A stretch of 32,000 bases of DNA from Promethearchaeia archaeon (GTDB lineage Archaea; Asgardarchaeota; Lokiarchaeia; Sigyniarchaeales; SOKP01), in contig JAWOFX010000174.1 in the NCBI GenBank assembly GCA_046497275.1, positions 1-32,000 of the forward strand, written 5' to 3'. Position numbers and translations under genes: made by a program. Below the pieces are notes generated by a model. That model saw nothing but the letters and a program-made list of their open reading frames with translations, did not search any database and was not told where the DNA came from. Within the stretch, counting starts at the first letter, position 1; each line of letters starts with the position of its first letter. Below, piece after piece: positions 12,785 to 31,771 of the stretch.

Positions 12785-15196
12785 ATGACCGTAATAGCTT
12801 CTGAAAAACCCTTGAAAAGGACTGAAGAATTAAAAAACAAATTACTTGGCTGTAAATATGAAATCTGTCTCGAAAGAATGAAATTCTTTACAGAAACATA
12901 TAAAAAATATCCCAATGAGCCAGAGATTATCAAAAGAGCAAGATCCATCGCTTATGCCTTAAGAAATATGACTATTTTCATCCGAGATGATGAATTACTT
13001 GTAGGAAACGAAACTAGTAAGGAATTAGGAGAAAAGATTAACCTTGACTTAATGCGATTTAATATCGGACTCGATAATAAAAATAAATTAGAAAAATTAA
13101 GAAGAAGAAAAGTTCAGCCTTTTCATATCACAGATAAAGAAATCGATGAACTTTTAGAGTTAATCTCTTTTTGGAAAGGAAAGTCCCTTGTGGGAGATCA
13201 CATAAACAAAAGATTGGTGGAGGAGGGTCTTGTACCAAAGGGAGGAAAACTTTCAACTTTAGCCCCAAATATTTCAATTCAAGTAGGAACCACAGAAGGG
13301 CATCTCTCTGCTAATTATGAGAAAATATTAAATTTAGGATATAAAGGGATTTTAGAGGAAGCAATAAAATTACAAAAAAAGTTATCAAAAGAAGATCCAG
13401 AATATCAGCAGAAATTCAATTTTTATGAAGCCGTGAAAATATATTATGAAGCAGCTATAGATTTTCTTATAAGGTTTTCTAAACTTGCGTTAAGCAAAGC
13501 AGAAAATGAAAATAACGAAACTCGTAAAAAAGAATTGATGAATATTTCAGAAATGTTGGAAAGATTCACTCATAGTGTACCTGAGACGTTTTATGAGGCG
13601 GTTCAATTAATTCATTTTACACAAAATATTGCTAATATTATATATCAGAGATCAGTTCTAGCGTTGGGCAGACTTGATCAAATTTTATGGCCTTATTACA
13701 AAAAAGATATAAAAGAAGGAAAAATTACCAAAGAATTTGCTTTAGAATTAATTGAAGAATTAAATTTGAAACTCACTTGGAATCTTACGCTTCTTCCAAC
13801 AGATTTTACGATGGTTGCAAATGCGTTTGGTCAGAACACACAAACAATAACAATTGGGGGTATAGACCCAATAACTGGACAGGATGCCATAAACGATTTG
13901 TCTTATTTATTTTTAGACGCCTATAAGCATCTCAAAGTATTTACGACCGATTTATCAGTCAGAATCCATGAAAATACTCCAGAAAAATTCATTCATGAAG
14001 CAGTTAAGCTATTTAAGAAAACTTCGGGAATAGCATTTTACAACGACAATATAATCATTCCTGCATTAAATAATGCGGGATATGCCTTAGAAGATGCTCG
14101 TGATTACGTACTTATCGGTTGTGTAGAACCTACGGGACAGGGAAATAGTTTTGCTGCTACGGGAAGGATGTTTATGAATTTACCGGGTGTCTTAGAACTC
14201 ACATTAAATAATGGATATAGTAATTTTTCAAAGCAAACAGATGGATTACAGACTGGGGATCCAAGTAGATTTAGAACATTTGATGATCTTTACGAAGCTT
14301 TCAAGGAGCAATTATCATATAATATTAAAAAATCTATTGATATTGCGAAAGTGGGAGACGAAGAAGCGATGAAATATTTCCAACACCCATTTACCTCCGC
14401 CATGATTGATGGATGTATGGAAAATGGAAAAGATTTTGTATGTGGAGGGGCAAAATATAATTATTCTTCAATCACAGCTTATGGATTTGCCACATTGGTT
14501 GATTCTTTTTATGCTATTAAAAAAGCTGTATATGAAGATAATTTAATATCACTTCCCGAATTAATTGAAATTTTAAATTCTAATTTTAGTCAATATGAAG
14601 ATTTAAGACTCAAACTAAAGAATAAATATCCTAAATGGGGAAATGATAATGATGAAATTGATGAATTTGCAAACAAATTATGGGATTTATATTGCAATGA
14701 AGTTTCTAAATTTACTCCTTTAAGAGGAGGGAAATATAGCGCAGGAGCTTATTCTATGGGGATACATGTAATGGAAGGATTTTTTACCCAACCGACTGCT
14801 GATGGAAGAAAAGCGATGGAAGCTATTTCTAATAGTTTATCCCCCGTTAATGGTGTAGAAAAGAATGGAATCACAGCCATTATGAATTCTCTTTCAAAAT
14901 TAGATTATACTTTAGCTACTAATGGAGTGGCAGTTAATGTGAGGATTCACCCTCAAAATTTTGAAGCACAAGAGAATATCGAAAAATTTTCCCATTTGCT
15001 CAGAGGATACTTTGAATTAGGAGGAATGCAAATACAGCCTAATGTTGTTTCGAGTGAAACTTTACGTGATGCGCAAAAAAATCCCGAAAATTATACCGAC
15101 TTGATTGTGAAAGTTGGTGGTTATAATGCTACTTATATAGATCTTGGTACACCTATTCAAAACGATATTATAAATAGAATAGAGAATAGTTTTTAA
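12785..15196 (+). CDS. Glycyl radical enzyme (PFL2/eliminase-like), substrate unknown
   Basis: IRDDELLVGN, LGRLDQIL, the catalytic loop IGCVEP (Cys446, Glu448), PTADGRKA and the C-terminal glycyl loop LIVKVGGYNA (Gly779). Confidence 0.92.
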   Translation: MTVIASEKPLKRTEELKNKLLGCKYEICLERMKFFTETYKKYPNEPEIIKRARSIAYALRNMTIFIRDDELLVGNETSKELGEKINLDLMRFNIGLDNKNKLEKLRRRKVQPFHITDKEIDELLELISFWKGKSLVGDHINKRLVEEGLVPKGGKLSTLAPNISIQVGTTEGHLSANYEKILNLGYKGILEEAIKLQKKLSKEDPEYQQKFNFYEAVKIYYEAAIDFLIRFSKLALSKAENENNETRKKELMNISEMLERFTHSVPETFYEAVQLIHFTQNIANIIYQRSVLALGRLDQILWPYYKKDIKEGKITKEFALELIEELNLKLTWNLTLLPTDFTMVANAFGQNTQTITIGGIDPITGQDAINDLSYLFLDAYKHLKVFTTDLSVRIHENTPEKFIHEAVKLFKKTSGIAFYNDNIIIPALNNAGYALEDARDYVLIGCVEPTGQGNSFAATGRMFMNLPGVLELTLNNGYSNFSKQTDGLQTGDPSRFRTFDDLYEAFKEQLSYNIKKSIDIAKVGDEEAMKYFQHPFTSAMIDGCMENGKDFVCGGAKYNYSSITAYGFATLVDSFYAIKKAVYEDNLISLPELIEILNSNFSQYEDLRLKLKNKYPKWGNDNDEIDEFANKLWDLYCNEVSKFTPLRGGKYSAGAYSMGIHVMEGFFTQPTADGRKAMEAISNSLSPVNGVEKNGITAIMNSLSKLDYTLATNGVAVNVRIHPQNFEAQENIEKFSHLLRGYFELGGMQIQPNVVSSETLRDAQKNPENYTDLIVKVGGYNATYIDLGTPIQNDIINRIENSF

Positions 15197-15225: not shown

Positions 15226-15879
15226 TTAAATACTAATCATTACTTTCTTTTTTATTATTTTGCGCAAAATAACCGACAGAGTAGATTTTGATTTTCCAAG
15301 TTCATTGGCTAATTCCTCTAAGGAAATTTTTCGGGGAACATCAAAAAATCCTTCATCTATTGCTTTCTCTAAAATTTCAATCTCCTCTAAGCTCAATCGA
15401 TGACCCTCATCTTCTAGATTAATTGAAGTGTTCCCGATTCTTAATAATTCAAAATCGATACCCATCTCTTCAAACATAGTAAGCATTTTATCAATACGAG
15501 CCCTTGTAGAAATTAGATCCCAATAAGCAAATCCATCTTCAACATTAACCGGAAAATCCACCAATACCCCACATTTAATCACCCCATAAAGCAAATAGGG
15601 ATCCATTGTCTTGACATTAAATTTAATCCGGTTTTCCTCTCGTTCGATCAATGAAAATTCCATCACAGATGAATGATTCTTAATTTCCTCAATAATTAAT
15701 TCTATATCATAATGCATGATCTCAACCACTGCATTTCCAATCGATTTTTCCAAGTCATAAGGTAGAAAATATAGGATTTCCATCTGAATGTCATAAAACT
15801 TTTCAAATAAATCGGAAATCCAGATCCCTTTAGGAAATTCAATCTTAATAGTGGCAATTGTGGACTTTTCTGAATCCAT
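15226..15879 (-). CDS. Archaeal transcription regulator with C-terminal HTH_10 (Bat-like) domain
   Basis: C-terminal EILEKAIDEGFFDVPRKISLEELANELGKSKSTLSVILRK pattern. N-terminal putative sensor domain. Confidence 0.85.
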   Translation of the reverse strand: MDSEKSTIATIKIEFPKGIWISDLFEKFYDIQMEILYFLPYDLEKSIGNAVVEIMHYDIELIIEEIKNHSSVMEFSLIEREENRIKFNVKTMDPYLLYGVIKCGVLVDFPVNVEDGFAYWDLISTRARIDKMLTMFEEMGIDFELLRIGNTSINLEDEGHRLSLEEIEILEKAIDEGFFDVPRKISLEELANELGKSKSTLSVILRKIIKKKVMISI

Positions 15880-16657: not shown

Positions 16658-17620
16658 ATGCCTAGTTATCAAGATATTATAGATGCCTATGAGAGGATAA
16701 AGAATTTTATTAATAAAACACCAGTAATGACCTCAAGAACCTTAAATGAGAAGACTGAAGCAGAAATCTTCTTAAAATGCGAGAATTTTCAGAAAGTTGG
16801 AGCTTTCAAGATGCGGGGAGCCATCAATGCTATTTCACACCTATCTGAAGAACAAAAAAATAAAGGAGTTATTACCCACTCAAGCGGAAACCATGCGCAA
16901 GCTGTTGCCTTGTCTGCGAAACTTTTAGATATACATGCAACGATCGTAATGCCAGAAACATCTCCAGAAGTGAAGATAAGAGCCACAAGAGATACATATA
17001 GTGCGAATGTCGTTCTATGTGAAAATACTATAGAAGCTCGTCAAAACACTACTGAAATCCTTATCAATAAACATGGATATACTTTAATCCATCCTTATGA
17101 CAATGAGCATGTTATCGCAGGTGCAGGAACCGCTGCTTATGAATTATTACAAGAAATCGATGATTTAAATATGATATTTGCTCCAATTGGAGGAGGAGGC
17201 TTATTAAGTGGCACATCCATCGCAACGAAGGGATTCGATTCATATATTCAAGTCTTTGGGGTTGAACCACAAAATGTAGATGATGCCTATCGATCTTTAC
17301 AAACTGGAAAAATCCAAATGAATAGAACAATCAACTCGATTGCAGATGGGTTATTGACAAATTTAAGCCAAAGGACCTTTTCAATTATTCGAAAAAATGT
17401 CGATCGGATTATTACTATTTCCGAACAACAAATTCTAGATGCGATGAAGTTTCTATGGGAGAGGATGAAGCTTGTGGTTGAACCTTCCGGTGCTTGTTCA
17501 TTAGGAGGAGTGTTGTCTAATAAAGTTTCTGTTCAAAATAAAAGAATTGGTGTAATAGTAAGTGGAGGTAATGTTGATCTAAGTGAATTTTTTAAAGAGT
17601 ATGAAAAAATCATCCAATAA
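16658..17620 (+). CDS. PLP-dependent serine/threonine dehydratase or serine racemase-like enzyme (fold type II, no ACT domain)
   Basis: LKCENFQKVGAFKMRGA (PLP lysine), SSGNHAQA, IGGGGLLSG, VVEPSGA and VSGGNVD. Confidence 0.9.
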   Translation: MPSYQDIIDAYERIKNFINKTPVMTSRTLNEKTEAEIFLKCENFQKVGAFKMRGAINAISHLSEEQKNKGVITHSSGNHAQAVALSAKLLDIHATIVMPETSPEVKIRATRDTYSANVVLCENTIEARQNTTEILINKHGYTLIHPYDNEHVIAGAGTAAYELLQEIDDLNMIFAPIGGGGLLSGTSIATKGFDSYIQVFGVEPQNVDDAYRSLQTGKIQMNRTINSIADGLLTNLSQRTFSIIRKNVDRIITISEQQILDAMKFLWERMKLVVEPSGACSLGGVLSNKVSVQNKRIGVIVSGGNVDLSEFFKEYEKIIQ

Positions 17621-17663: not shown

Positions 17664-18623
17664 TTATTTAGTAATATCTATTTTTCCAGAACGATTTGAA
17701 TTCCGAATAATAATAATGTTAGCAATTATAATCAAAATCCCTCCCAAAATAGTAAAAATTGAAAATTTCTGTAAAAAAATCGCAGTATTTATAACTGCCA
17801 CGAATGGTTCAAAGTAACCTAATATAATAATATTCCCACTTTCATCATTTTTAATCCCAATATTGTAAAGGATAAATGCTAATGCTGTAGGAATAAGACC
17901 TAATAATAAGCAAACAATTACATCGATTAGTGTTAATTTTAAAATATCAGCTGCTCCTAATGGAAGATAAAAAATTATTAGGGTTAAAGTTGCCCACCAA
18001 GCAAGAAAAGTATCAAAAGCACCCTCATCACTATTATTATATGATTTATAATTATAACGGTCATTATACATCTTTTTCCGTACATAAATATTAAATGCAA
18101 GAATAAGAGCAGATGCCAGTCCGAATGTGAGGGAATTTATTAATATAGATCCTTTCCATACTTCCATTATCACTAAAACTCCGATTACTGCCAAAATAAA
18201 ACTAAATATATTTTCTTTTGGAATATTTTCTTCTTCCTTAGTTACGTATAAAATTCCCAATAAAAAGATCCCATTCATATATAATAGGAAGGCTGCAATG
18301 GCATACCCAGAAATCTGAATGTTTAAAAAATAGAAATAAATACCAAGGGGATAAATCAAAACTAGTAACATTATATTTTTCCAATGGAGTTTAAAATTTA
18401 ACTTAAGGAAGTCTTTAGAGAAGGCCCCCGTTTTAATCATCCATATACTTAAAAAAAAAGTACCGAAAATTCCCCTAAACAAAACGATTGAATACGTTGG
18501 GTATGAGGAGAGAAGATCAACCATTAAACCAACAAAACCCATTGAAATAGCAGAAATTAACATTGAAATTTGAGAAATAAGTCTTCCAGCATTATCCCTA
18601 TTATTATTCATCTTTTTTTCCAT
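17664..18623 (-). CDS. DMT/EamA family transporter
   Basis: About 10 hydrophobic segments in two repeats, with LIPTALAFILYNIGIK and GYFEPFVAV motifs. Confidence 0.8.
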   Translation of the reverse strand: MEKKMNNNRDNAGRLISQISMLISAISMGFVGLMVDLLSSYPTYSIVLFRGIFGTFFLSIWMIKTGAFSKDFLKLNFKLHWKNIMLLVLIYPLGIYFYFLNIQISGYAIAAFLLYMNGIFLLGILYVTKEEENIPKENIFSFILAVIGVLVIMEVWKGSILINSLTFGLASALILAFNIYVRKKMYNDRYNYKSYNNSDEGAFDTFLAWWATLTLIIFYLPLGAADILKLTLIDVIVCLLLGLIPTALAFILYNIGIKNDESGNIIILGYFEPFVAVINTAIFLQKFSIFTILGGILIIIANIIIIRNSNRSGKIDITK

Positions 18624-21001: not shown

Positions 21002-21319
21002 ATGGAGAAAATGGAAATTCCCGAGTATATTGAAAAAATAGCTAATAAAGTAGAAGGGAAAAATGATTCGAAAGATATGATGGCTTTTACACTCTCTACA
21101 TGTCAATGGTGTAAAAAATTTAAAAGATATATGAAGGATCGAGATGTTTCCTTTAAATATGTAGATGTGGACCAAATAGATCCAAGTGAAAAAGCACAAA
21201 TATTAACTTTCTTACGTAATAATTTTGATGAACGAGTTTCCTACCCATACTTAATTTGTGATGGAAATGTGGTGGTGGGATATAATCCGAATAAATATGA
21301 TGAATTATTAAAGGACTAA
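21002..21319 (+). CDS. Glutaredoxin (NrdH-like)
   Basis: TLSTCQWCKK CxxC, FKYVDVD and SYPYL (cis-Pro) motifs. GGTGA site upstream. Confidence 0.88.
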   Translation: MEKMEIPEYIEKIANKVEGKNDSKDMMAFTLSTCQWCKKFKRYMKDRDVSFKYVDVDQIDPSEKAQILTFLRNNFDERVSYPYLICDGNVVVGYNPNKYDELLKD

Positions 21320-21331
21320 TGGTGGTTTAAT

Positions 21332-21712
21332 TTGAGTTTTAATTTAGAGAGTAAGGAAGGAATGAGAGAATATTGTGATAAGATTTGTGAAATGAATGAT
21401 TGGATTTTACAAAAAGATAAAGAAACTTTAGATGATTTAATTGATGGACTAGTTGAAAATAAGAAAAAATATGGATACCAATCGTGCCCTTGCCGTTTTG
21501 CATGTGGGAAAAGAGAGTTAGACAGAGATTTAATTTGTCCCTGTGTTTATGCTAAACCAGATATAGAAGAATATGGGACATGTTACTGTAATCTCTATCT
21601 TAGTCCGGATTTTTACGAAACTCATGAAGAGGATTTCCTACAGATTCCAGAGCGTCGACCTGTAGAAAAGGAAAATGCTGTTTTAGAATACATGAATGAA
21701 CAAATCCAATGA
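21332..21712 (+). CDS. Ferredoxin:thioredoxin reductase catalytic subunit
   Basis: YGYQSCPCR, ICPC and CYCNLY: the CPC/CPC/CxC signature of the FTR catalytic chain. Confidence 0.92.
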   Translation: MSFNLESKEGMREYCDKICEMNDWILQKDKETLDDLIDGLVENKKKYGYQSCPCRFACGKRELDRDLICPCVYAKPDIEEYGTCYCNLYLSPDFYETHEEDFLQIPERRPVEKENAVLEYMNEQIQ

Positions 21713-21853
21713 TTTTTAATTTTAAAATTTTTTCTTACTTTTTTTAGATTATAAAAAAGAATCTCTTAATTTTAAAAATAATTAAGCTCTTTGTTCAAAA
21801 ATCAATAATTTATAAAAATAATTTATATATATTATAGATCCTCACTAGTTAAT

Positions 21854-22012
21854 ATGTCAAGAGAAGATTTAACGGACGAAGAAATAGAGGAAATGCTTGA
21901 GAAAGATTTAAAAGCAAATGAAGCGAAACGTGATAACTGTGGAGTTGCAATCCCCCCTAATCGAGAAATTGGAATTCAAAGAGATCAAGTAAAACTCAAG
22001 AAAAAAGATTAA
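21854..22012 (+). CDS. Small hypothetical protein, 52 aa (not in ORF track)
   Basis: MSREDLTDEEIEEMLEKDLKANEAKRDNCGVAIPPNREIGIQRDQVKLKKKD*. Purine-rich coding-like composition. A TTTATATA box at 21822-21829 lies about 25 nt upstream of the ATG, consistent with a leaderless transcript. Confidence 0.65.
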   Translation: MSREDLTDEEIEEMLEKDLKANEAKRDNCGVAIPPNREIGIQRDQVKLKKKD

Positions 22013-22177
22013 GATAAACTTAGATTTTTCTATTTTTTTCCTTTATTCTATTTTTAATTATGCTTATTTAGAATTGATTAAATAAAATAACTCAAAAAAC
22101 AATATTATAAATTCTAAAAGATATTTTTATTAAGGAATCCCATTTCATTATATTACATTAGTTAGAGGTATATCTCC

Positions 22178-23161
22178 ATGGATGAGAGAATTGAAGGAAG
22201 AAAAAATTATCCCACTAAGGAAGTGGATCCAAAAAATTTCATTGATGATGATGAAATCCGTGAAATGGTAAAACAATTAGATTCAATAGAATTTTCTGAA
22301 GATGATTATTATAAAGTTTATAACTGTGTAGATTGTGGAGAGTGTGATACCGAGGAGGATCGTATCCGATTAAAGCAGAAATATGTTGAGCAAGGACATA
22401 TCATTGAAGATTTAAAGAATATGAGACAATGCTTTGAAAAATATAGAACCCCGTATCCTATGAATGAAATGCGAATGAAAATCCCGGAAGGGATCCCTGA
22501 AGAATCTGATACACTTTTTTTCATGGGATGTCTTTCTACGATGAAAATCCCTCGATATACTCAACATGCGCTTGAATATTTATTACATCGAGATATTGAT
22601 TTTACAATATTAGATGAGGAAATCTGTTGCGGATGGCCATGGTATGTTTCTGGTTCAAATGAAGAACTTGAAGTATGTATGAAAGAGAATATTGAAATTT
22701 TTAAAAATTATCAAAAAATAATTTGCCTATGTCCCGCGTGCTATTATTTATTCCAGAACAACTATTGCAAGGAAATGGATAAAGATGTCAAAATTAGCTA
22801 TATCGTTGATTATTTGAGACCTGCTAAAGAAAAAAAATCTGGAAATGTAGCGTTCCAACATCTATGCCAGCTCAAGTTCAGAGGGGAAGACAATATAGAT
22901 AAATTTGTGGAAAATATTTTTAGGAAGAGTGGATATAATATTATCGATATTCCCCATTGGTGCTGTGGACATGGGATTGGCAGAATGCATAGACTGGATG
23001 TAATTGATGCTATAGGAGAAAAGCGTATTAAGGATTTTGACCAGAAAGATATTGATTTCGTTTCCACGTACTGTGTTTCCTGCTGGTGGTGGCTGTATCG
23101 TTTCTCTAAAAAATTCAGAATACATCCTCAAGCTAGGGATATTTTTGAATTACTTATGTAG
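22178..23161 (+). CDS. CCG-domain (Fe-S)-binding protein, HdrD/GlcF-like, paralog 1
   Basis: N-terminal CVDCGEC. Two CCG domains: MGC...ICCGW...CPAC and HLC...WCCG...CVSC. Confidence 0.85.
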   Translation: MDERIEGRKNYPTKEVDPKNFIDDDEIREMVKQLDSIEFSEDDYYKVYNCVDCGECDTEEDRIRLKQKYVEQGHIIEDLKNMRQCFEKYRTPYPMNEMRMKIPEGIPEESDTLFFMGCLSTMKIPRYTQHALEYLLHRDIDFTILDEEICCGWPWYVSGSNEELEVCMKENIEIFKNYQKIICLCPACYYLFQNNYCKEMDKDVKISYIVDYLRPAKEKKSGNVAFQHLCQLKFRGEDNIDKFVENIFRKSGYNIIDIPHWCCGHGIGRMHRLDVIDAIGEKRIKDFDQKDIDFVSTYCVSCWWWLYRFSKKFRIHPQARDIFELLM

Positions 23162-23191
23162 ATTTATATTTATTATTCAAAAGGTTATAAT

Positions 23192-24163
23192 ATGGGTAAT
23201 AATGATAAAAAGGAAAGAAAATACCCTGCTCAAGAGGTAGAACCAGAAAGTTTTATCACTAATGAAGAAGTAGAAGAACTTCTTAGAACAAAACATGAGT
23301 ACCGTTTTCAACAAGAGGATTATAAAAGATTATATAGCTGCATCCATTGCAGAGAATGCGGGACATCTGACGAAAGAATCCTCCTCAAGCAAAAGTTTCT
23401 TAAAGATGGAAACAAAATTGAAGGATTAGAAGAGACCAAAAGAGTATTTCAAAAATATGGAAGTCCCTATAAAGATACAAAAAGACGAATCAAACTGCCA
23501 AAAAATATACCAAAAGAAAGTGACACTTTACTTTATTTTGGGTGTTTTGTTAATGTAAAAGTACCTAAATATGGAGAACATGCGGCACAGTATCTTTTAG
23601 ATAAAGGGGTTGAATTCACAATTTTAGAAAAGGAGATTTGTTGTGGATATCCAGTACTTGTAACAGGTGATACAGAAACTTATGATTATCTCATCGAGAA
23701 AAATAGAAAAATATTTACTGACAAAGGGTTCAAAAAAATAATTACTATATGTCCAAGTTGCTATATGACCTTCAATAAACACTATGCTGACTTAGATATA
23801 GAGATAGAATATTATACGAAATATTTAAAGCCCGCCGAAACGCAAAAATCTGGAAATGTAAGTATTCAACATGCGTGTCCTTTAATATATGATTGTATGC
23901 CTGAAATGAAAGATAGGATTGAAGATCTTTTGAAAGAATCTGGTTATAATGTTATGGATATTCCTTTGTTCTGTTGTGGGGGTGGTGTTGGTCATCAGTT
24001 AAGAACAGATATAGCAGAAAAGATTGCTAAGCTTCGAGTGCAAGACTATAAAGGAAATTTTGTGACTTATTATTGCCCTGATTGTTATTGGTTTATTAAT
24101 GTATTTGGAAAGAGAGCTCGAATCAAACCGAAATTGAAGGATTTAGTGGAATTATTATCTTAA
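23192..24163 (+). CDS. CCG-domain (Fe-S)-binding protein, HdrD/GlcF-like, paralog 2
   Basis: N-terminal CIHCREC. Two CCG domains: FGC...ICCGY...CPSC and HAC...FCCG...CPDC. Colinear with paralog 1. Confidence 0.85.
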   Translation: MGNNDKKERKYPAQEVEPESFITNEEVEELLRTKHEYRFQQEDYKRLYSCIHCRECGTSDERILLKQKFLKDGNKIEGLEETKRVFQKYGSPYKDTKRRIKLPKNIPKESDTLLYFGCFVNVKVPKYGEHAAQYLLDKGVEFTILEKEICCGYPVLVTGDTETYDYLIEKNRKIFTDKGFKKIITICPSCYMTFNKHYADLDIEIEYYTKYLKPAETQKSGNVSIQHACPLIYDCMPEMKDRIEDLLKESGYNVMDIPLFCCGGGVGHQLRTDIAEKIAKLRVQDYKGNFVTYYCPDCYWFINVFGKRARIKPKLKDLVELLS

Positions 24164-25153
24164 TAATTGTTTGATCTCCGAGAATAATTTATTAAGATCT
24201 CTTGAAGATATCTGCCCAGGAGCCCATTTAATTTGACAATTAGTTGCATATATGAATGGAATATTTTTCGTATCTTTAATCAGTTGCTTAAGGTCTTTTA
24301 GAGTTTTTTCTTTTGGTTGGATTTGAATACTGACGGGGTCTATTCCTCCACAGAGAATTAAATTATATTTTTTAGCTAATTGTATATTCTCAATTACATT
24401 AGGAATATTCAATCCTATAATTCCAGCATCTTTCATGGGACCTATAATATCATCATTCAATACATGGCTAATCTTTTTTGCGCAAAAATGGATTAGTGTC
24501 GGTTTATTAAGTTCTGAAACGCAATATTTTATAAGTTTATTCATTGAATCTTGAATAATATCAATATAGGAGCGCTTCATTATTGTACATTCACTTGGAG
24601 CCAAAATAAATAGTGTATCAACAAACTCACTTATCATTTTAGCATAAAAGTTAATTATTGATTGAGAGAACTCTATTAGAGATTTTAAAAATTCAGGGTT
24701 ATATATTACTAATTCTGAAGCAACTTGCAAATCGAGAATAAGTGAAACTAAAGTATAAGGTGCTGGAATATATCCTCCTTTATATCGAAAAATACCATCT
24801 GAAGATTCATACAAATTTTTAAGTACTTGATAAGTCGAGGATTGGGATATTCGTGCCAATGTGGGAGAACGGATTATTTCTTTTGGTTCAAATTGAGCCC
24901 AATCTTGACTTTTTGAGATATTAATTTTCTTTTTTTTTACATTAGAAACAATTTCGACATACTCATCTAAGTCCATACGAGGAAAGGTGATATCAAAATT
25001 GTACGTTTTTTGAAATTCCTTTAATGCCTTAATTTGATTTAGAGGATTTTGTTCAATATCATGAGATTCCATATATGCTTCGATAGCAAATAAAGAAAAC
25101 CAGGGATCCCCTTTTTGAAGGGATTTATAAATATTTGTAATATAATTCACCAA
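24155..25153 (-). CDS. Divergent URO-D/MtaA family protein (putative methylcobamide:thiol methyltransferase, MT2-like)
   Basis: GYIPAPYTL (family GPFT motif), IHFC (H-x-C), LCGGIDP (family GNIDP) and a distal ATNC cysteine. Cotranscribed with the mttB-like and corrinoid genes. Confidence 0.68.
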   Translation of the reverse strand: MVNYITNIYKSLQKGDPWFSLFAIEAYMESHDIEQNPLNQIKALKEFQKTYNFDITFPRMDLDEYVEIVSNVKKKKINISKSQDWAQFEPKEIIRSPTLARISQSSTYQVLKNLYESSDGIFRYKGGYIPAPYTLVSLILDLQVASELVIYNPEFLKSLIEFSQSIINFYAKMISEFVDTLFILAPSECTIMKRSYIDIIQDSMNKLIKYCVSELNKPTLIHFCAKKISHVLNDDIIGPMKDAGIIGLNIPNVIENIQLAKKYNLILCGGIDPVSIQIQPKEKTLKDLKQLIKDTKNIPFIYATNCQIKWAPGQISSRDLNKLFSEIKQLLR

Positions 25154-25168
25154 AAGTGTTTATGTTTT

Positions 25169-26680
25169 TTAAATATTAGAGCCAGGTACAGGTGCAGATG
25201 CGGAATCTAACCCTTCTGCTTCCATATAATCTTTTAAAGTCCGTGATTCTACTTTTTCAATATATTTTTCCAGTTCTGCTTTAATCCTCTCTGGAACTTC
25301 TGGGCTTTTATGGTCTTTAAGAATCACCTCAACTTTTTCCCTGGCACGCTCTATAATATCTTTAGCACCTTTCTTCCACCAAGTATTCCTTCGATTTCTA
25401 TCCACCAATTCTGGCATATATAAAGATTTTTTCATATTTTTGAGGGTATGCATTTCACCTAAAAAGGTGGAACCTTTCTTCTCACTCGTAGCAACTTTTT
25501 CAATAATCTCCAAGGCAATTGTATCCTCATTCACTTCTATCCCATTTAATGCTCTTTTAACCATACCAACTAACTCATCATCAATCAATAGTAGTTCCAA
25601 TGATTCTACTAAGGTTGCTTCATACGTTCCAGCACAGGTGATATAATTTATCCCCGCTTGAGCTGCTAATAATAAAGTTTGGAATCTTTCAAATCCATTT
25701 TGAAGATCTAAGATTTTTGAATCAGTCACTCCTCCAGGTCCTCTAGAGGGATAGCCATAAAAATCTGCTAATTGCGCAACGGCAGCAGTGATTAGACCTG
25801 TTTCGATTGAACCCATAGCCGAGTTTCCAGTTTTCATATCAGTTATATGCGAAACGGTCCCATAGAAGAGAGGAGCTCCAGGATTATATATCTGAGCTAA
25901 AACAGCACCCCCGAGGTTTTCTGCATTTGTTTGAGTTAATAAGCCTGCTAATGTTACTGGTGCGGAAGAGCCCGCAAGAGCTTCTGGTGCAACTATGGTT
26001 GGTTGTTTATATTTGGCAAACACTTCAAAACCATTCGTCATAATTTTGGGAAAGTGGAGTGGACTTGTCGTACTAAAAAAACCTACTAATCTTGGATTTT
26101 TTATCAATTCTTCATCTCCTCCACATGCTATAGATGCAATATTCATCATATCTTGGCTAGGAAGTCCCCCATAACAACCTAAACCGTAAGGTTTACGTGT
26201 ATTCATTATCCATTGATACATTGCATGAGCATGAAGGGCGGTATATTTTACATCATTTGGCCACACATCCACATGTGAACAATTAATATGTTTCAATGTA
26301 TCAACTATCCTAATTTGTTCAATAGTGTCCGCTAATAACGTTTTTCTTACCCCTTTCTTCTTGTTTGGGTCATAAATTTTCACGGGTGTTCCAATTGTAG
26401 CGAATTGGGTTGATGATGTATTCACTTCAAAGCTAAAGGAGCCGTCTGGTCCGTTTAAGGTGAAAGACTTTGGAACTTTTTTGACCATTTCCATTACAAG
26501 TTCTTCTGGAATCCTTACAAAATCAGACTTTTTGTCTACTTTACAACCATATTCTTCTAATTTTTTTTGAGTATTTTTACAATCAATTTTAATCCCTACC
26601 TTTGAAAGAAGTTGAAGCGTTGCTGAATGAATTTGTTCAATTTCATCTTGTCCTAATACTTCAAGTTTACTCATTTTCAT
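25169..26680 (-). CDS. MttB-superfamily corrinoid methyltransferase, non-pyrrolysine, paralog 1
   Basis: EIEQIHSATLQLL, TTSPL, APVTLAGLLTQ, PSRGPGGVTDSK and LQNGFER. No in-frame amber codon. Confidence 0.92.
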   Translation of the reverse strand: MKMSKLEVLGQDEIEQIHSATLQLLSKVGIKIDCKNTQKKLEEYGCKVDKKSDFVRIPEELVMEMVKKVPKSFTLNGPDGSFSFEVNTSSTQFATIGTPVKIYDPNKKKGVRKTLLADTIEQIRIVDTLKHINCSHVDVWPNDVKYTALHAHAMYQWIMNTRKPYGLGCYGGLPSQDMMNIASIACGGDEELIKNPRLVGFFSTTSPLHFPKIMTNGFEVFAKYKQPTIVAPEALAGSSAPVTLAGLLTQTNAENLGGAVLAQIYNPGAPLFYGTVSHITDMKTGNSAMGSIETGLITAAVAQLADFYGYPSRGPGGVTDSKILDLQNGFERFQTLLLAAQAGINYITCAGTYEATLVESLELLLIDDELVGMVKRALNGIEVNEDTIALEIIEKVATSEKKGSTFLGEMHTLKNMKKSLYMPELVDRNRRNTWWKKGAKDIIERAREKVEVILKDHKSPEVPERIKAELEKYIEKVESRTLKDYMEAEGLDSASAPVPGSNI

Positions 26681-26703
26681 TTGATATTCCCTCCCCTGCT
26701 AAA

Positions 26704-27348
26704 TTAGTTTTTTGCTAATAATTGATTAATTTTATTTACTGCATCTAAAGAATCATCTGCCCATGCATCCGCATCAATTTTTTTTGCCCAATCTGCTGAT
26801 GTGGGTGCCCCTCCAACAATTACTTTATATTTATCCCTTATTCCTTCCTTTTTCATTTCTTCTATAACTTGTCTCTGAAAATCCATGGATAAGGTTACTA
26901 AAGATGAGAGTCCAATAACGTCCGCATTTACTTCTTCAGCTTTTTTAATGAAATCATGCGCCTTCACATCCACTCCTAAATTGTATACTTCATACCCATT
27001 AGAAAAAAGAAAAGAAGCTACAAGATCCTTTCCAATACTATGAACATCACCCTCAACAGTTCCAATCACTATTTTTCCTTTAGATTCTCTAACCTCTCCT
27101 CTCTCCCTGATGGCAGGATCTATTATTTCATCAATTACAGATTTTACAATATTGGCCGCAACAATAAGTTCTGGTAGCATTAATTCTTCTTTTTCGAACT
27201 TTTCTCCTAGAATTTTCATTGCATCTCCAATGAAATTCACAAGGTTAATAGGATTTATATCATCTTTGATCGCATTCTTACAAATATCTCTTAATTTTTC
27301 TTCTTCCCAGTTAAATATTGCATCCTTAATTGTGTCTTCTAAAGCCAT
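26704..27348 (-). CDS. Corrinoid (B12-binding) protein, MttC/MtaC-like
   Basis: Cap domain LMLPELIVAA, the base-off/His-on motif EGDVHSIGK, NLGVDV, IGLSSL and VIVGGAP. Confidence 0.93.
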   Translation of the reverse strand: MALEDTIKDAIFNWEEEKLRDICKNAIKDDINPINLVNFIGDAMKILGEKFEKEELMLPELIVAANIVKSVIDEIIDPAIRERGEVRESKGKIVIGTVEGDVHSIGKDLVASFLFSNGYEVYNLGVDVKAHDFIKKAEEVNADVIGLSSLVTLSMDFQRQVIEEMKKEGIRDKYKVIVGGAPTSADWAKKIDADAWADDSLDAVNKINQLLAKN

Positions 27349-27472
27349 TTTTTTCTCATTTAATAGTTGTAATTAAAACATTATTAATAAGAATTAATTC
27401 TAAGAATAAATAAATTAATTATCAATAATACTAAAACATAATTTAACAGTTTTTTATGAGAAGATTTTAAGT

Positions 27473-28987
27473 ATGAAACTTAGTAATTTAAAAGTACTCA
27501 CTCAAGATGAGATTCTACAAATTCATCAAAAAACTTTAAAATTATTGTATGACGTCGGAGTTAAAGTAGAAACTGAAGAGGCTAGAAATCTCTTAATAGA
27601 GAATGGAGCTATTTTAGATTCTGAGAAGAGTGATTATATCAGATTTCCGGAGGAATTAGTTTTAGAACAGTTAAAGAAGGTTCCCAATTCCTTTACCTTA
27701 TGGGGTGCCGATGGGAGTTATAAAGTTGATATTACTACAGATACTGTGAATTTTGCCACAGTAGGTACACCTGTGAAAATGTATGATCCGAATAAAAGAA
27801 AACTTGTGAGAAAGTCCCTTCTTGAAGATACGATAAAACAAATCCGCATTGTTGATAGTTTAAAAAATATTGTTGCTTCACATGTAGATGTATGGCCGAA
27901 TGATGTCCCCTATACCGAATTACATTGGCATTCAATGTATGCGTGGGGCAAAAGCAGCACAAAACCTTATGGATTGGGTTGTTATGGAAGGACTGCTTCC
28001 CATGATATGATGGAAATAGCTTCTATAATTGTTGGGGGGAAAGAAGAATTGAAAAAACGACCTAGATTAATTGCCTTTTTTAATCCTACAAGTCCATTAA
28101 CATTAACCCCTATTATGTTGAATGGTCTTTTTGAATTTGCAAACTATAATCAACCAATCATTATTGCCCCTGCCGCGAGTGCGGGATCCACAGCACCTGT
28201 AACTTTGGCAGGCTTACTTATCCAATCAAATATAGAGATTTTATCCTCTATTGTATTAACTCAATTAATTAAGCCGGGATGCCCTATCTTTTATTCTACA
28301 ATGAATAGCATAATGGATCCTCCGACAGGTAATGTGGCGTGGGGTAGTATAGAAACAGGGTTAATTTCAACGGCACACGCGCAATTATCTAAATTTTATA
28401 ATATCCCTTCAAGAGGTCCGGGATGTGTGACGGAATCTAAATGTTTTGATATCCAAAATGGTTTGGAGCGATTTATGACACTCTTTTTTTCCGCAAATGC
28501 AGGAATTAATTATATCACCTGTGCGGGAACCTATGAATCTTCTTTATCTGAGGCTTTAGAATTATTAGTAATAGATGATGAAATTTGTGAGATGGTAAAA
28601 AGAGGGATGAGGGGGATTGATTTTAATGATGAAACATTAGCAATTGAACCAATTAAAAAAGTGGCAGAATCTGGAAAACCTTATTTAATGCTTCGCCATA
28701 CAGCGAAAAATACACGAAAGGAGATATTCGTCCCTAAATTAATGGATAGAGAGAGACGGGGCAAATGGTTAAAATCAGGCGCTAAAGATATTATGGAACG
28801 AGCAAGAGAGAAAGTAGATGAAGTTTTACACACGCAAGAAGGACCAGGTTATAGTCCCGAGGTAGATAAAAAATTAAAAGAATATTTGAAAGTAATTTCT
28901 ACTCGAACTATGGAAGATTATAGAAAATTGGAAGGAATGGAAGATGAAGATGGTTCTGTGGATCTTCCCGGAAGAAATTTGGATTAA
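27473..28987 (+). CDS. MttB-superfamily corrinoid methyltransferase, non-pyrrolysine, paralog 2
   Basis: EILQIHQKTLKLL, PTSPL, APVTLAGLLIQ, PSRGPGCVTESK and IQNGLER. No in-frame amber codon. Confidence 0.92.
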   Translation: MKLSNLKVLTQDEILQIHQKTLKLLYDVGVKVETEEARNLLIENGAILDSEKSDYIRFPEELVLEQLKKVPNSFTLWGADGSYKVDITTDTVNFATVGTPVKMYDPNKRKLVRKSLLEDTIKQIRIVDSLKNIVASHVDVWPNDVPYTELHWHSMYAWGKSSTKPYGLGCYGRTASHDMMEIASIIVGGKEELKKRPRLIAFFNPTSPLTLTPIMLNGLFEFANYNQPIIIAPAASAGSTAPVTLAGLLIQSNIEILSSIVLTQLIKPGCPIFYSTMNSIMDPPTGNVAWGSIETGLISTAHAQLSKFYNIPSRGPGCVTESKCFDIQNGLERFMTLFFSANAGINYITCAGTYESSLSEALELLVIDDEICEMVKRGMRGIDFNDETLAIEPIKKVAESGKPYLMLRHTAKNTRKEIFVPKLMDRERRGKWLKSGAKDIMERAREKVDEVLHTQEGPGYSPEVDKKLKEYLKVISTRTMEDYRKLEGMEDEDGSVDLPGRNLD

Positions 28988-29021
28988 AATGTATTATCAT
29001 TAAAATAAAAAGGTGTATATT

Positions 29022-30305
29022 ATGGAAAATGAAAAAAACATAAAAACAAAGGGACAAATTGAAGAGGAACAGAGAGAAAAGTGGGATGAAATGGAATTTG
29101 CTACACAATTAATGCGAGCGGGAGAGGATCCATATCCCGAAACCTCACATTCATTACGAACTCCTCTATACGCAACGAAATCTTACGTATACAAATCACT
29201 CTCTGAACTTGTCGAAAATCATTATTATTATTCAAGAACGGAAAATCCTACTTTATATGCGTTGGATCAGAAATTAGCCACTCTACATGAAGGAGAAGCA
29301 GGTCTCTCTGTTGCATCTGGTATGGCAGCAGTCCATTTATCATGTATGAGTGTACTCCAAGAAAGAATTGAGCGGATAAGACCAAAAAGGATTAAAAAAC
29401 TTTATCCTCAAACCCATCCCGGTAAAATTCCTAACATAATAATTCATAAAAATCTATATACTGGCTCTTTTCGATTATTTACGAAAATTTATCCTCAGAT
29501 GGGTATTGAAACCCGACGTGTTGATCTCACGAATCTAAATGAGATTAAATCAGCGATTGATGATCAAACTAAGTTACTTTTTATTGAGACACCCGCAAAT
29601 CCAACTGTAGATATTATAGATATAAAATCTTGTGCTGATTTAATTCATGATAATGGAGGTCAATGCATAGTAGATAATACTTGGGCATCACCAGCTTTAC
29701 AAAAACCATTAAATTTGGGAGCAGATCTTGTTGTAGAAAGTTTAACTAAATACATAAATGGTCATGGCGATTGCCTTGGAGGGGCTATTATTGGTCCCAA
29801 AAATCAATTAAGAGATTTACGATATTATTGGCTGGAAACTCAAGGAGCAGTCCTGAGTCCTTTTAATGCATGGTTAATTTTAAGGGGGGTGCGTACACTT
29901 GGATTAAGAATGGATAAGCATAGTGTAAATGCAATGGAAATTGCGAGATTTTTAGAGAGCCATGAAAAGGTTAAGGAAGTAGTTTACCCAGGGTTAAAAA
30001 CTCATCCTCATCATCAGGTTGCGAAAAAACAGATGCAAAATTTCGGTGGGATGATTGGATTCGAGTTATATTCTGTTAAGGAGAGTAATATATTTATAGA
30101 ATTACTTAAACAAATAAAAGTAGGTGTTTCTCTAGGAGATACAACTTCGTTAATTGAATACACTTCCCTAATGACTGGTATAGACCTTGCATCATGGGAA
30201 AAAAGATCCATGAATATTTCCGATACTCATTTTCGCTTATCCGTAGGATTAGAGGACTCAAAAGATCTTATAAAAGATTTAGATCAAGGACTTAAGCAAC
30301 TCTAA
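29022..30305 (+). CDS. PLP-dependent transsulfuration-family lyase (cystathionine gamma-lyase/synthase, methionine gamma-lyase-like)
   Basis: YSRTENPT, ASGMAA, ETPANP, DNTW, ESLTKYINGHGD (PLP lysine), VSLG and RLSVGLED. ATG at 29022 follows an AGGTG site. Confidence 0.9.
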   Translation: MENEKNIKTKGQIEEEQREKWDEMEFATQLMRAGEDPYPETSHSLRTPLYATKSYVYKSLSELVENHYYYSRTENPTLYALDQKLATLHEGEAGLSVASGMAAVHLSCMSVLQERIERIRPKRIKKLYPQTHPGKIPNIIIHKNLYTGSFRLFTKIYPQMGIETRRVDLTNLNEIKSAIDDQTKLLFIETPANPTVDIIDIKSCADLIHDNGGQCIVDNTWASPALQKPLNLGADLVVESLTKYINGHGDCLGGAIIGPKNQLRDLRYYWLETQGAVLSPFNAWLILRGVRTLGLRMDKHSVNAMEIARFLESHEKVKEVVYPGLKTHPHHQVAKKQMQNFGGMIGFELYSVKESNIFIELLKQIKVGVSLGDTTSLIEYTSLMTGIDLASWEKRSMNISDTHFRLSVGLEDSKDLIKDLDQGLKQL

Positions 30306-30358
30306 ACTTACTTATTCATCGTTTATAATCTTAAAAAAGAGAAAAAAATAGAATTTAT

Positions 30359-31771
30359 TCATCTATTAGTTCTAACTTTGTCCAACTTCTTTCTGTGGAG
30401 TTCTTCGAGTTTAATTTTCATTTCACTGACTTTTTCTTTTGTAAACGGATAATAATATAAGCATATCATGGTGAATCCTAATGCAATTCCAGGAAAGACG
30501 ATAAATAAAACTAATAATCCTAATGTAGGGTCTATGGTTGGATCATATGTTTCCCATTCTGTCATATTGAACACTAAACCGACAGTTACTATGGACAGAA
30601 TCATACTTAAACGCATAAAAAAGTTGGTGACGCCAAAAAATGCTCCTTCTCTACGTAATCCGGTATTTAATTCATCTTCATCGATAATGTCAGCGATAAT
30701 AAGATAAATAAAATACAGCATGCCTCCAAAACCTATTCCTACAAAGAGAGAAAAAACTATAGCAAATTCATATACTTGAAAAAACATAATTGGTAACGTC
30801 GAGATAAAATAAACGACAATCGAAATAGCATATCCTTTTCTGCTTCCAATAGTCAAATCTAATTTTCTCCATAGAATAACTGAAATGGCTCCAATGATAT
30901 ACATAATTCCCAGAATAATCATAGTTGGAAATTCTCCAATATCCCAAACGTATTTTCCAAATAAGGGCATAATTAGACCTAAGAGTAGCAATGTATATTC
31001 ATATAAGAAAAACATTATCGAATATAATTGGAATCCTTTATTACTTAAAGTATATTTAAGATTTTCCAAGAGTTTAAACTCTTGCCGATTATCCAACTTA
31101 AATTCTTCACGTTCTTTCACCCCCCATTTCAAAGAAATGATCAGAGAAATTCCAACGATTATAGATGTAACAATCCCATTTATAAGGTAGCCAAATGTTT
31201 CTGTTGAACCCCCAAATAAATCAATGAACAATCCGGGAACAAGTGCCGCAAAAATTAAACCCACCACGGATAATAATTGTTTTATAGTGTTAACTTCTGA
31301 TCTTTCCTCAACACTGGTATATAGTTCTGGAAATAAGGAATCAAATGGTAATGCTATCATTGTGTAAAATGTATCATAACAAAACAACATAATCAATAGA
31401 TACAAGAAGTTCATCCAAGTATTTCCGGGATTTGGCAGCCATACGATTATTTCAAGGATTAATATTGGGATAGTCCCAATCATAATGAATGGTTTTCTTC
31501 TTCCATATTTTGTGTTTGTTCTGTCGGAAAGATATCCAATTAAGGGATCATTAATCGCGTTCCACAAAGACCATATCACATAAGCCAGAATGATAAAATA
31601 CGTACTTAATCCAATTGCCGTAAAATAAAATGTGAAAATCCATATATTGAATGCAGAATTAATAAACCACTGAGCAAAAGAACCCATTCCGAAGCTCCAT
31701 TTCTGTTTTTTACTAAATCTTGTTTCTTCACTCATAAGTTGATTTTTTTTGCTAGACATATCCTTGATCAA
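30359..31771 (-). CDS. MFS transporter, GPH/MelB (MFS_2) family
   Basis: WNAINDPLIGYLSDRTNTKYGRRKPF and IADIIDEDELNTGLRREGAFFG motifs, about 12 TM segments. The start may be 31759 or 31735. Confidence 0.9.
   Translation of the reverse strand: MIKDMSSKKNQLMSEETRFSKKQKWSFGMGSFAQWFINSAFNIWIFTFYFTAIGLSTYFIILAYVIWSLWNAINDPLIGYLSDRTNTKYGRRKPFIMIGTIPILILEIIVWLPNPGNTWMNFLYLLIMLFCYDTFYTMIALPFDSLFPELYTSVEERSEVNTIKQLLSVVGLIFAALVPGLFIDLFGGSTETFGYLINGIVTSIIVGISLIISLKWGVKEREEFKLDNRQEFKLLENLKYTLSNKGFQLYSIMFFLYEYTLLLLGLIMPLFGKYVWDIGEFPTMIILGIMYIIGAISVILWRKLDLTIGSRKGYAISIVVYFISTLPIMFFQVYEFAIVFSLFVGIGFGGMLYFIYLIIADIIDEDELNTGLRREGAFFGVTNFFMRLSMILSIVTVGLVFNMTEWETYDPTIDPTLGLLVLFIVFPGIALGFTMICLYYYPFTKEKVSEMKIKLEELHRKKLDKVRTNR

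Follow-up and report, generated by a model that had tools for sequence, protein, structure and literature searches.

A Lokiarchaeial MttB–corrinoid–PLP enzyme cassette with a genus-level candidate MtaA-type addition and a separate CCG redox unit beside it

The first 32,000 nucleotides of contig JAWOFX010000174.1 from the Promethearchaeia archaeon assembly GCA_046497275.1—referred to here as the window—carry a locus in which two genes for MttB-type methyltransferases stand together with genes for a corrinoid protein, a uroporphyrinogen decarboxylase (URO-D)-like protein, a pyridoxal phosphate (PLP) enzyme, and two CCG-domain proteins. An earlier note, made from the letters of this DNA, had taken these seven genes for a single methyl-to-thiol transfer system. 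The present analysis favors a composite of three units lying side by side: a five-gene cassette found in a large part of the Lokiarchaeia, an added MtaA-type gene whose product would direct methyl groups to or from sulfur, and a redox unit that merely abuts the other two. The chances that this reading holds as a whole, including the sulfur-directed role of the added gene, are put at about even. What is new here is the genus-specific MtaA-type addition and the recognition of the CCG pair as a unit of its own.

Gene calls were taken from the open reading frame (ORF) listing and from Pfam and NCBIfam scans of the window. They confirmed the positions and strands that the earlier note had given for the seven genes, the two divergent arms, and the 9-nt overlap (24155–24163) at which the URO-D-like gene and the second CCG gene converge; an MFS_2 gene and genes for a glutaredoxin-like and an FtrB-like protein were recognized as neighbors beyond this seven-gene locus. 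The note's probable Asgard host is of Loki type, as judged from named homologues in Lokiarchaeota/Promethearchaeota bins and from genes for Arf- and RagA-type GTPases in the genome; a longin-domain gene lies on a related contig.

The Cassette and Its Substrate

The cassette (25169–31771) comprises the MFS_2 gene, the gamma-lyase-like PLP gene, MttB2, the corrinoid gene, and MttB1. Its two arms diverge from a 124-nt spacer (27349–27472, from the ORF coordinates), presumably the site of both arms' promoters, and the gaps within the two arms, counting the URO-D-like gene at the end of the minus-strand arm, are 15–25 nt. The minus strand carries the corrinoid carrier protein of MtgC/MtbC type (26704–27348; PF02310, B12-binding, and PF02607, B12-binding_2), situated between the two MttB genes, and MttB1 (25169–26680; PF06253, 345 bits). 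On the plus strand, MttB2 (27473–28987; PF06253, 319 bits) is co-directional with the gene for the Cys/Met-metabolism PLP enzyme (29013–30305, GTG start; PF01053, 399 bits). The latter is adjoined by an MFS_2/GPH cation symporter on the minus strand (30359–31771; PF13347, 199 bits), which is presumed to be the importer of the cassette substrate.

This gene set recurs in many genera of the Lokiarchaeia. A class-wide search at E <= 1e-30 found matches to the PLP gene in 90 of 161 class genomes, and orthologues at 64–80% identity are present in about 75 of the 161. In all 25 flanks inspected, drawn from many genera, the PLP gene adjoins either MttB2 on the same strand or the corrinoid–MttB1 pair in divergent orientation; MFS_2 lies on its other side in 23 of these 25 flanks and also in loci L074–L078. 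Three long contigs of distant members retain four or five of the cassette genes in the same order amid otherwise unrelated surroundings. Five further genomes of the genus show the core order, as do many other genera in a form that lacks the URO-D-like gene, so the arrangement is not due to chance. The PLP gene is accessory rather than housekeeping, since a match occurs in only 21 of 40 high-quality genomes; the possibility, raised in the earlier note, that the lyase is a mere housekeeping enzyme was thus not borne out. In some 70 genomes lacking the URO-D-like gene, the lyase is tied to MttB, corrinoid, and MFS genes. It follows that the lyase cannot depend on the URO-D-like enzyme, and the proposal that it acts on an S-methyl product of that enzyme is ruled out as a general rule. 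No description of such a cassette was found in the literature on MttB with methionine gamma-lyase or S-methylmethionine.

The two MttB frames (503 and 504 amino acids; PF06253 cutoff 25) are open throughout with no in-frame UAG; neither therefore encodes pyrrolysine, in agreement with the earlier note. MttB1 and MttB2 are 56% identical, and MtgB is the best match in the PDB for both (9yce/2qne, 245 bits for MttB1; 253 bits for MttB2). Glycine betaine is bound in MtgB by Y97, R312, H348, and F356 (PMC13080624), and alignment to 9yce_A showed that R312 only is kept in MttB1 and MttB2. With one of four binding residues retained, glycine betaine was rejected as the substrate, and both enzymes are predicted to bind another compound, which probably still bears a carboxylate. 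The corrinoid protein displays the DxHxxG, SxL, and GG motifs in alignment and scores 188 bits against the NCBIfam MtgC model, below its cutoff.

The PLP enzyme belongs to a large Asgard-specific clade, the top 120 database matches being at least 67% identical. Its best solved relatives are methionine gamma-lyases, exemplified by that of Citrobacter freundii (2rfv, 313 bits). Comparison with 2rfv and with 117 clade members revealed that the PLP lysine, the stacking tyrosine, the phosphate-binding Tyr-x-Arg motif, and the carboxylate-binding arginine are intact. The signature of methionine gamma-lyase (MGL) itself is absent: the sequence reads Y-T-G instead of Y-G-C, so that Cys116 is lacking, and a glutamate, conserved at 0.99 in the clade, occupies the position of Lys240. 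In addition, about 25 residues rich in Arg and Lys are inserted before the tyrosine, a feature conserved in the clade. The enzyme reaches 345 bits with the methionine gamma-lyase model TIGR01328, whose cutoff is 549.7, and an attempt to assign it by NCBIfam to the gamma-synthases, gamma-lyases, or sulfhydrylases failed because its scores were similar and below cutoff throughout. Release of methanethiol by this enzyme is accordingly a guess from sequence. No second PLP enzyme of the Cys/Met family was found in the genome with this query. Enzymes of this family require a free alpha-amino group. Together with the fixed pairing of PLP enzyme, MttB, and importer, this requirement suggests that the cassette substrate is an onium derivative of an amino acid.

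The URO-D-Like Addition

The URO-D-like gene (24155–25153, minus strand, TTG start; PF01208, 40.7 bits) has a far narrower distribution than the cassette. Orthologues occur in 7 of the 161 class genomes, namely the genome of the window, five others of its genus, and one of another genus. At every orthologous locus, the gene follows MttB1 and the corrinoid gene, in one of two orders, Corr–MttB1–UROD or MttB1–Corr–UROD. It is hence described as a genus-level addition to the Corr–MttB1 operon. Within the genus (loci L008–L012), the URO-D-like protein is 56–66% identical, as against 73–85% for the MttB, corrinoid, PLP, and CCG proteins, which indicates that the addition evolves faster than its neighbors. 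When 1.84 billion representative proteins were searched exhaustively with a profile, only five clusters were returned at E <= 1e-30, followed by scores of at most 74 bits. The distant members of the family, at 32–37% identity, have unrelated contexts devoid of corrinoid genes (L090, L092, and P0145–P0148), one lying beside a ThiC-like radical SAM gene and one with a BAR-domain gene on its contig.

By sequence, the protein is remote from all curated families, its best NCBIfam match being MtaA/CmuA (TIGR01463) with 36.3 bits against a cutoff of 235.4; neither single-sequence nor profile searches of PDB sequences with the family gave a meaningful match. Placement came solely from fold comparison. 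The AlphaFold2 (AF2) model (pLDDT 86.3, pTM 0.87) adopts the URO-D/MtaA/MetE fold, and Foldseek aligned it with HemE at TM 0.68–0.73, with MtaA (4ay7) at 0.64, and with MetE at 0.46–0.58. A motif H222-x-C224...C306 is invariant in an alignment of 18 family members. The same three residues are invariant across 25 sequences that include the 20 nearest outside relatives, MtaA-like proteins which score as MtaA/CmuA or as methylcobalamin:coenzyme M (CoM) methyltransferase-like and share about 17–20% identity with the URO-D-like protein. In the AF2 model, the triad residues sit directly after barrel strands, and C224 and C306 are 82 residues apart, a spacing close to that of MtaA and MetE. The protein is thus best placed in the MtaA/CmuA branch, as a diverged lineage that carries a predicted zinc triad. 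The earlier note's assignment as a second transferase of thiol type stands as regards fold, motif, and predicted partner; membership in the CoM methylase family does not, given the low scores and the lack of ComA and MCR.

The genome's other URO-D paralogues, 12 in number, lack the terminal cysteine of the triad and carry HS(C/D)G at the site of the first zinc ligand. These paralogues are probably substrate:corrinoid methyltransferases of the O-demethylase/haloalkane type, like the MtoB/CdmB homologues of Asgard archaea, in which this branch, including CdmB, has been reported (PMC13222342).

A model of the complex between the URO-D-like protein and the corrinoid protein of the cassette reached a score of 0.74, the best control scoring 0.00; the mark applied is attained by 58 of 80 solved complexes, compared with 2 of 110 mismatched pairs. 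At least 90% of contacts are common to the runs, the partner pLDDT is at least 82, and the modelled interface joins the barrel mouth beside the triad to the cobalamin face of the carrier. The model supports docking of the URO-D-like protein on the corrinoid protein. Placement in the MtaA/CmuA branch, the invariant triad, and the modelled docking together make sulfur-directed methyl transfer by this enzyme plausible.

The CCG Proteins

Next to the addition lie CCG1 (22178–23161, plus strand; PF02754 in two stretches, 73.5 bits), an HdrB/GlpC/TfrB-like protein, and its paralogue CCG2 (23192–24163, plus strand; PF02754 in two stretches, 75.2 bits). CCG2 is 40% identical to CCG1 by tblastn, occurs in tandem with it in most genomes, and is its probable partner subunit. 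CCG1 contains two complete CCG motifs and one N-terminal CxxCxxC, with all NCBIfam matches far below cutoff; HdrB and HdrD models score 20–29 bits on the CCG proteins against cutoffs of 345–450, and no Fer4 Pfam match was obtained in either, a single CxxCxxC being the only such motif. The earlier description as an HdrD-like pair is therefore correct for the two CCG domains in each protein and fails for the rest, there being neither a two-cluster ferredoxin domain nor a CoM-S-S-CoB context.

Upstream, on the same strand, follow genes for a glutaredoxin-like protein with a CQWC motif (21002–21319; PF00462, 35 bits; NCBIfam GlrX_YruB and Uxx_star glutaredoxin-like), an FtrB-like protein, i.e., a ferredoxin:thioredoxin-reductase catalytic subunit, with CPC...CPC...CYC (21332–21712; PF02943, 76 bits; NCBIfam FtrB family), and a 52-amino-acid ORF (21855–22012) between the latter and CCG1. 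Orthologues of the CCG pair are present in 117 of the 161 class genomes. Of 26 flanks from other genomes, at least 12 have glutaredoxin-like and FtrB-like genes beside the pair, and none has MttB, corrinoid, URO-D, or PLP genes next to it. Two relatives have about 3.4–4 kb of unrelated genes between the URO-D-like gene and the pair, the URO-D-like locus L078 lacks the pair, and genome G048 carries it 358 kb from the cassette. Distribution and neighbors of the pair thus differ from those of the methyltransferase genes, and the adjacency seen in the window is incidental. Grx–FtrB–CCG–CCG (21002–24163) is a separate, widely conserved disulfide-reductase-like unit, and the pair's inclusion in the methyl system, as the earlier note had it, was not upheld.

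NCBIfam names—FtrB family, Uxx-star glutaredoxin-like, and the 'dicluster near Sec' suggested by weak CCG matches—point to one redox set, of whose selenoprotein-linked form the unit looks like a cysteine version, to judge from these family names. It may act as a ferredoxin-dependent disulfide reductase. A role of the pair as a substitute for RamA was considered and rejected, a RACo/RamA-type gene being present elsewhere in the genome and the pair not travelling with corrinoid genes.

Methyl Metabolism of the Host

The assembly (3.85 Mb, 188 contigs, 98.9% complete) permits some statements on the fate of methyl groups. Neither mcrA nor a homocysteine (S-methyl_trans) domain of the MetH/BHMT type was found in the genome, and ComA, through which alone CoM synthesis was looked for, was likewise not found. 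The claim of a system free of MCR thus extends from the window to the whole genome. The window is also devoid of mcr, mtr, and pterin methyltransferase genes in the Pfam and NCBIfam scans, as the earlier note had said; the suggested lack of a pterin route does not carry over to the genome, which harbors two MtrH-like genes, the CODH/ACS subunit CdhD, an MTHFR-like gene, and a RACo/RamA-type activator. Transfer from methyl-corrinoid to tetrahydromethanopterin via an MtrH-like enzyme has been shown for MtoA (PMC8630106), and by analogy this ordinary route would be available to the host. Two Pterin_bind matches were rejected as methyl-pterin transferases, one being a dihydropteroate synthase (DHPS; 214 bits, above cutoff) and the other a DHPS-like archaeal protein. 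A weak ORF resembling core MetE was detected as well (PRK00957, 114.6 bits against a cutoff of 258).

The genome contains four copies of MttB and thirteen URO-D paralogues; tblastn recovered only three other corrinoid-protein genes. A third MttB, 57% identical to MttB2, is encoded on contig C103 (315–8245) together with an HdrB-like CCG protein, an MTHFR-like protein, a flavin adenine dinucleotide (FAD) oxidoreductase, and an MFS_1/BT1 transporter; this cluster may constitute a separate methyl-oxidation module.

Flanking Genes

Beyond the window, contig C65 (32042–41002) carries genes for two PDO-like double-thioredoxin proteins, an MFS_2 protein, a TrxR-like protein (327 bits, cutoff 343), an FAD protein, and a second MFS_2 protein, followed by CysE and CysK, each scoring above its NCBIfam cutoff. 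Relatives L077 and L078 likewise have the PDO pair and the reductase as flanking genes of the cassette. The cassette of this genus thus lies in a neighborhood of thiol and sulfur-amino-acid genes.

On the other side, the window encodes a PFL-like glycyl radical enzyme (12785–15196), which scores 642 bits with TIGR01774 (PFL2-3 subfamily), just below cutoff, 552 bits with the sulfopropanediol dehydratase model, and 461 bits with the choline TMA-lyase model; an HTH_10 regulator gene comes after it (15226–15879, minus strand). A PLP enzyme of the serine/threonine-dehydratase type adjoins an EamA transporter (16658–17620 and 17664–18623); the former resembles threo-3-hydroxyaspartate ammonia-lyase (421 bits, cutoff 452), and an EamA gene is also found beside the cassette on the distant contig L074.

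Proposed Mechanism and Alternatives

The analysis shows the identities of the genes, their synteny, the conserved triad, and the modelled docking; substrate, lyase reaction, sulfur partner, direction of transfer, and downstream route may be inferred as follows. The MFS_2 symporter would import a methylated, amino-acid-like onium compound. MttB1 and MttB2 would each pass one methyl group onto the Co(I) center of their common corrinoid protein, and the gamma-lyase-like PLP enzyme would cleave the demethylated amino-acid part. The favored substrate is S-methylmethionine or a close analogue, demethylation of which would yield methionine and, by the action of the lyase, methanethiol, 2-oxobutyrate, and ammonia. 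The putative MtaA-type zinc enzyme, presumably co-transcribed with the corrinoid protein and MttB1, would dock on the same carrier and exchange methyl groups with a small sulfur compound other than CoM. Most readily, it would recapture the methyl group of methanethiol on Co(I) in the manner of MtsA and MtpA; alternatively, it might methylate homocysteine or sulfide. A precedent is found in MtpA, which methylates mercaptopropionate rather than CoM and is a physiological methylthiol:cob(I)alamin enzyme (10.1101/548461). Finally, an MtrH-like enzyme would unload the methyl-corrinoid to tetrahydromethanopterin and thereby into the CODH/ACS pathway, and a RamA-type activator would hold the cobalt reduced. 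The addition is more readily seen as a gained function than as a substitute; MtrH-like and core-MetE-like genes are already present in the genome. The S-methylmethionine chain as a whole is offered as a tentative scheme that is itself unlikely to be right in every step. The broader proposal must be held with equal reserve, i.e., that Loki-type Asgard archaea live on a sulfonium or other onium amino acid by way of B12, with both methyl groups entering the Wood–Ljungdahl pathway, the methanethiol released by the lyase recaptured in one genus, and no methanogenesis.

Several observations weigh against the composite reading with its sulfur-directed addition. The addition is confined to one genus and one further genome, so that its evidence from synteny comes from close kin, and the contexts fetched for the distant family members P0145–P0148 contain no corrinoid, MttB, or sulfur genes. 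The URO-D-like protein falls far below every curated cutoff (25.9 against 400 with MtaA_Meth), and the outcome of the complex modelling supports binding rather than demonstrating it. The PLP enzyme stays below cutoff with about equal scores for the gamma-synthase, gamma-lyase, and sulfhydrylase models and is devoid of the MGL signature residues. All characterized enzymes of the MttB superfamily use nitrogen onium groups, and no sulfonium donor was found in the literature. Lastly, the two PDO-like genes and the TrxR-like gene flank the other side of the cassette, and some link between thiol redox chemistry and the cassette may exist after all.

Among the alternatives, an anabolic function fares best, although it too appears unlikely. 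The PLP enzyme would serve as a sulfhydrylase producing homocysteine from sulfide and an activated homoserine, and the URO-D-like zinc enzyme would methylate this homocysteine with the methyl group loaded by MttB onto the corrinoid protein, so that the locus would amount to a betaine-driven methionine synthase; in other genera, the final methylation would fall to a core-MetE homologue. Such coupling has a counterpart in Ruegeria, where glycine-betaine demethylation feeds methionine synthesis via one corrinoid protein (PMC12478193). His–Cys–Cys zinc sites are typical of homocysteine methylation by MetE, which is among the Foldseek matches. The PLP gene is the sole Cys/Met-family gene found in the genome, no MetH/BHMT-type domain accompanies the weak core-MetE-like ORF, and the contig also carries CysE and CysK. 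On the other hand, the presence of two to four MttB paralogues with an importer of their own has a catabolic look, the solved structures closest to the PLP enzyme are those of methionine gamma-lyases, and a core-MetE-like gene is already there. Moreover, about half of the high-quality class genomes do without the PLP gene, and most genomes with the cassette do without the URO-D-like gene.

It is quite unlikely that the addition has nothing to do with sulfur and represents a further substrate:corrinoid methyltransferase (MT1)—acting on methanol, a halomethane, a selenide, or a methoxy compound—or an unloader to a non-thiol acceptor, with the cassette itself feeding MtrH and tetrahydromethanopterin. 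The URO-D superfamily does include O-demethylases and the haloalkane enzyme CdmB with homologues in Asgard archaea (PMC13222342, PMC8630106), and methylotrophy without methanogenesis by MttB-like, MtbC-like, and MtrH proteins has already been proposed for these organisms (PMC11291895). The very weak scores against MtaA models and the presence of MtrH-like genes, CODH/ACS, and an MTHFR-like gene would also agree with it. Two findings speak for sulfur: the full triad is common to the MtaA/CmuA-like relatives and absent from the 12 O-demethylase-like paralogues, and the URO-D-like gene always accompanies a lyase-bearing cassette, in two gene orders.

The single pathway of the earlier note—MttB loading the corrinoid, the URO-D-like enzyme methylating a thiol such as CoM, homocysteine, cysteine, or sulfide, the lyase freeing methanethiol from the S-methyl product, and the CCG pair re-reducing the thiol—could draw on the contiguity of all genes in the window, the lack of MCR, the thiol-type triad with its modelled fit to the carrier, and a CCG pair that, in several genomes of the genus, lies no more than about 4 kb from the URO-D-like gene, but is highly improbable in view of the roughly 70 genomes that keep the lyase–MttB–Corr–MFS set without the URO-D-like gene, the absence of ComA, and a CCG pair that accompanies Grx and FtrB in 117 of 161 genomes (as against 7 of 161 for the URO-D-like gene), is never found beside methyltransferase genes outside this genus, and is distant, missing, or separated by unrelated genes in relatives. 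As to the co-conservation that the note had expected among relatives, it exists for the five-gene cassette across many genera and, at the level of the genus, for the URO-D-like gene; the CCG pair goes its own way.

Known Systems and Implications

Systems built on non-pyrrolysine MttB enzymes are established, as in Methanolobus vulcani, where MtgB and MtgC operate with a CoM methylase of the MtaA type (PMC6855144). In the MtgB/MtgC systems of M. vulcani and of Desulfitobacterium hafniense, the latter with MtgA, a non-pyrrolysine MttB protein loads a corrinoid protein that a second methyltransferase unloads, an organization that the locus described here is predicted to share. The likeness to M. 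vulcani extends to the second enzyme, an MtaA homologue, and among solved structures, MtgB of D. hafniense is the closest to MttB1 and MttB2. Despite this relatedness, several differences exist: one of four betaine residues is retained, MCR and ComA are missing, a PLP enzyme and MFS_2 are fixed companions, and the URO-D-like protein is far from MtaA. With MtaA/MtbA, MtsA, and MtpA, the addition shares the URO-D TIM barrel and the His-x-Cys...Cys triad with similar spacing, and it is likewise predicted to work with a small corrinoid partner; it differs in belonging to a tiny, isolated family below curated cutoffs, found in a non-methanogen and in an MttB operon. MtsA and MtpA show that enzymes of this kind can use methylthio compounds as methyl donors and thiols other than CoM (10.1101/548461).

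By gene content, the locus further resembles the type 1 mlp clusters, in which MtaA-like enzymes and a corrinoid protein occur without CoM being made and without a folate methylase in the cluster (Kountz and Balskus, PMC10418091). In non-methanogens, these clusters have been proposed to function in methyl-sulfur or methyl-selenium metabolism (PMC10418091). They differ from the present locus in that they contain two or three proteins of URO-D type as well as a Ram/RACE activase and lack MttB, PLP lyase, and importer. Within the Asgard archaea, methylotrophy without methanogenesis has been proposed for Atabeyarchaeia and Freyarchaeia, whose MttB-like and MtbC-like proteins would pass methyl groups to tetrahydromethanopterin (H4MPT) or tetrahydrofolate (THF) via MtrH (PMC11291895). 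Both cases concern Asgard genomes that are free of MCR and carry MtbC-like genes together with MttB-like genes of the non-pyrrolysine kind. Whereas those of Atabeyarchaeia and Freyarchaeia are located near MtrH and gcvH, the genes described here stand with a gamma-lyase-like enzyme, MFS_2, and, in one genus, an MtaA-type enzyme. The PLP enzyme retains the catalytic lysine, the Tyr, the Tyr-x-Arg, and the Arg of methionine gamma-lyase 2rfv and departs from it in Y-T-G, the Glu at the Lys240 position, and the inserted stretch. Similarly, the CCG proteins share two complete CCG motifs with HdrB/HdrD, resemble GlpC and the C-terminal half of TfrB, and differ from HdrD by a single CxxCxxC in place of two ferredoxin-type clusters and by a context without MCR or CoM–CoB. 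Consequently, the CCG pair should not be annotated as the heterodisulfide reductase of a methyl pathway.

Asgard archaea are abundant in anoxic sediments, and their diet is mostly inferred. The cassette points to a specific methylated substrate that is imported and demethylated via B12 by a large part of the Lokiarchaeia, and the constant presence of a lyase-like PLP enzyme narrows the candidates for this substrate to amino-acid-like onium compounds. The predicted zinc enzyme suggests that methyl groups are linked to volatile sulfur—methanethiol and possibly dimethyl sulfide—without formation of methane, a link that would bear on the cycling of sulfur and carbon in sediments and on competition with methylotrophic methanogens. 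If a route of the S-methylmethionine type were to hold true, the cassette would comprise the first MttB enzyme using a sulfonium compound, and recapture of methanethiol, if true, would be the first instance of methanethiol-based methylotrophy outside the methanogens.

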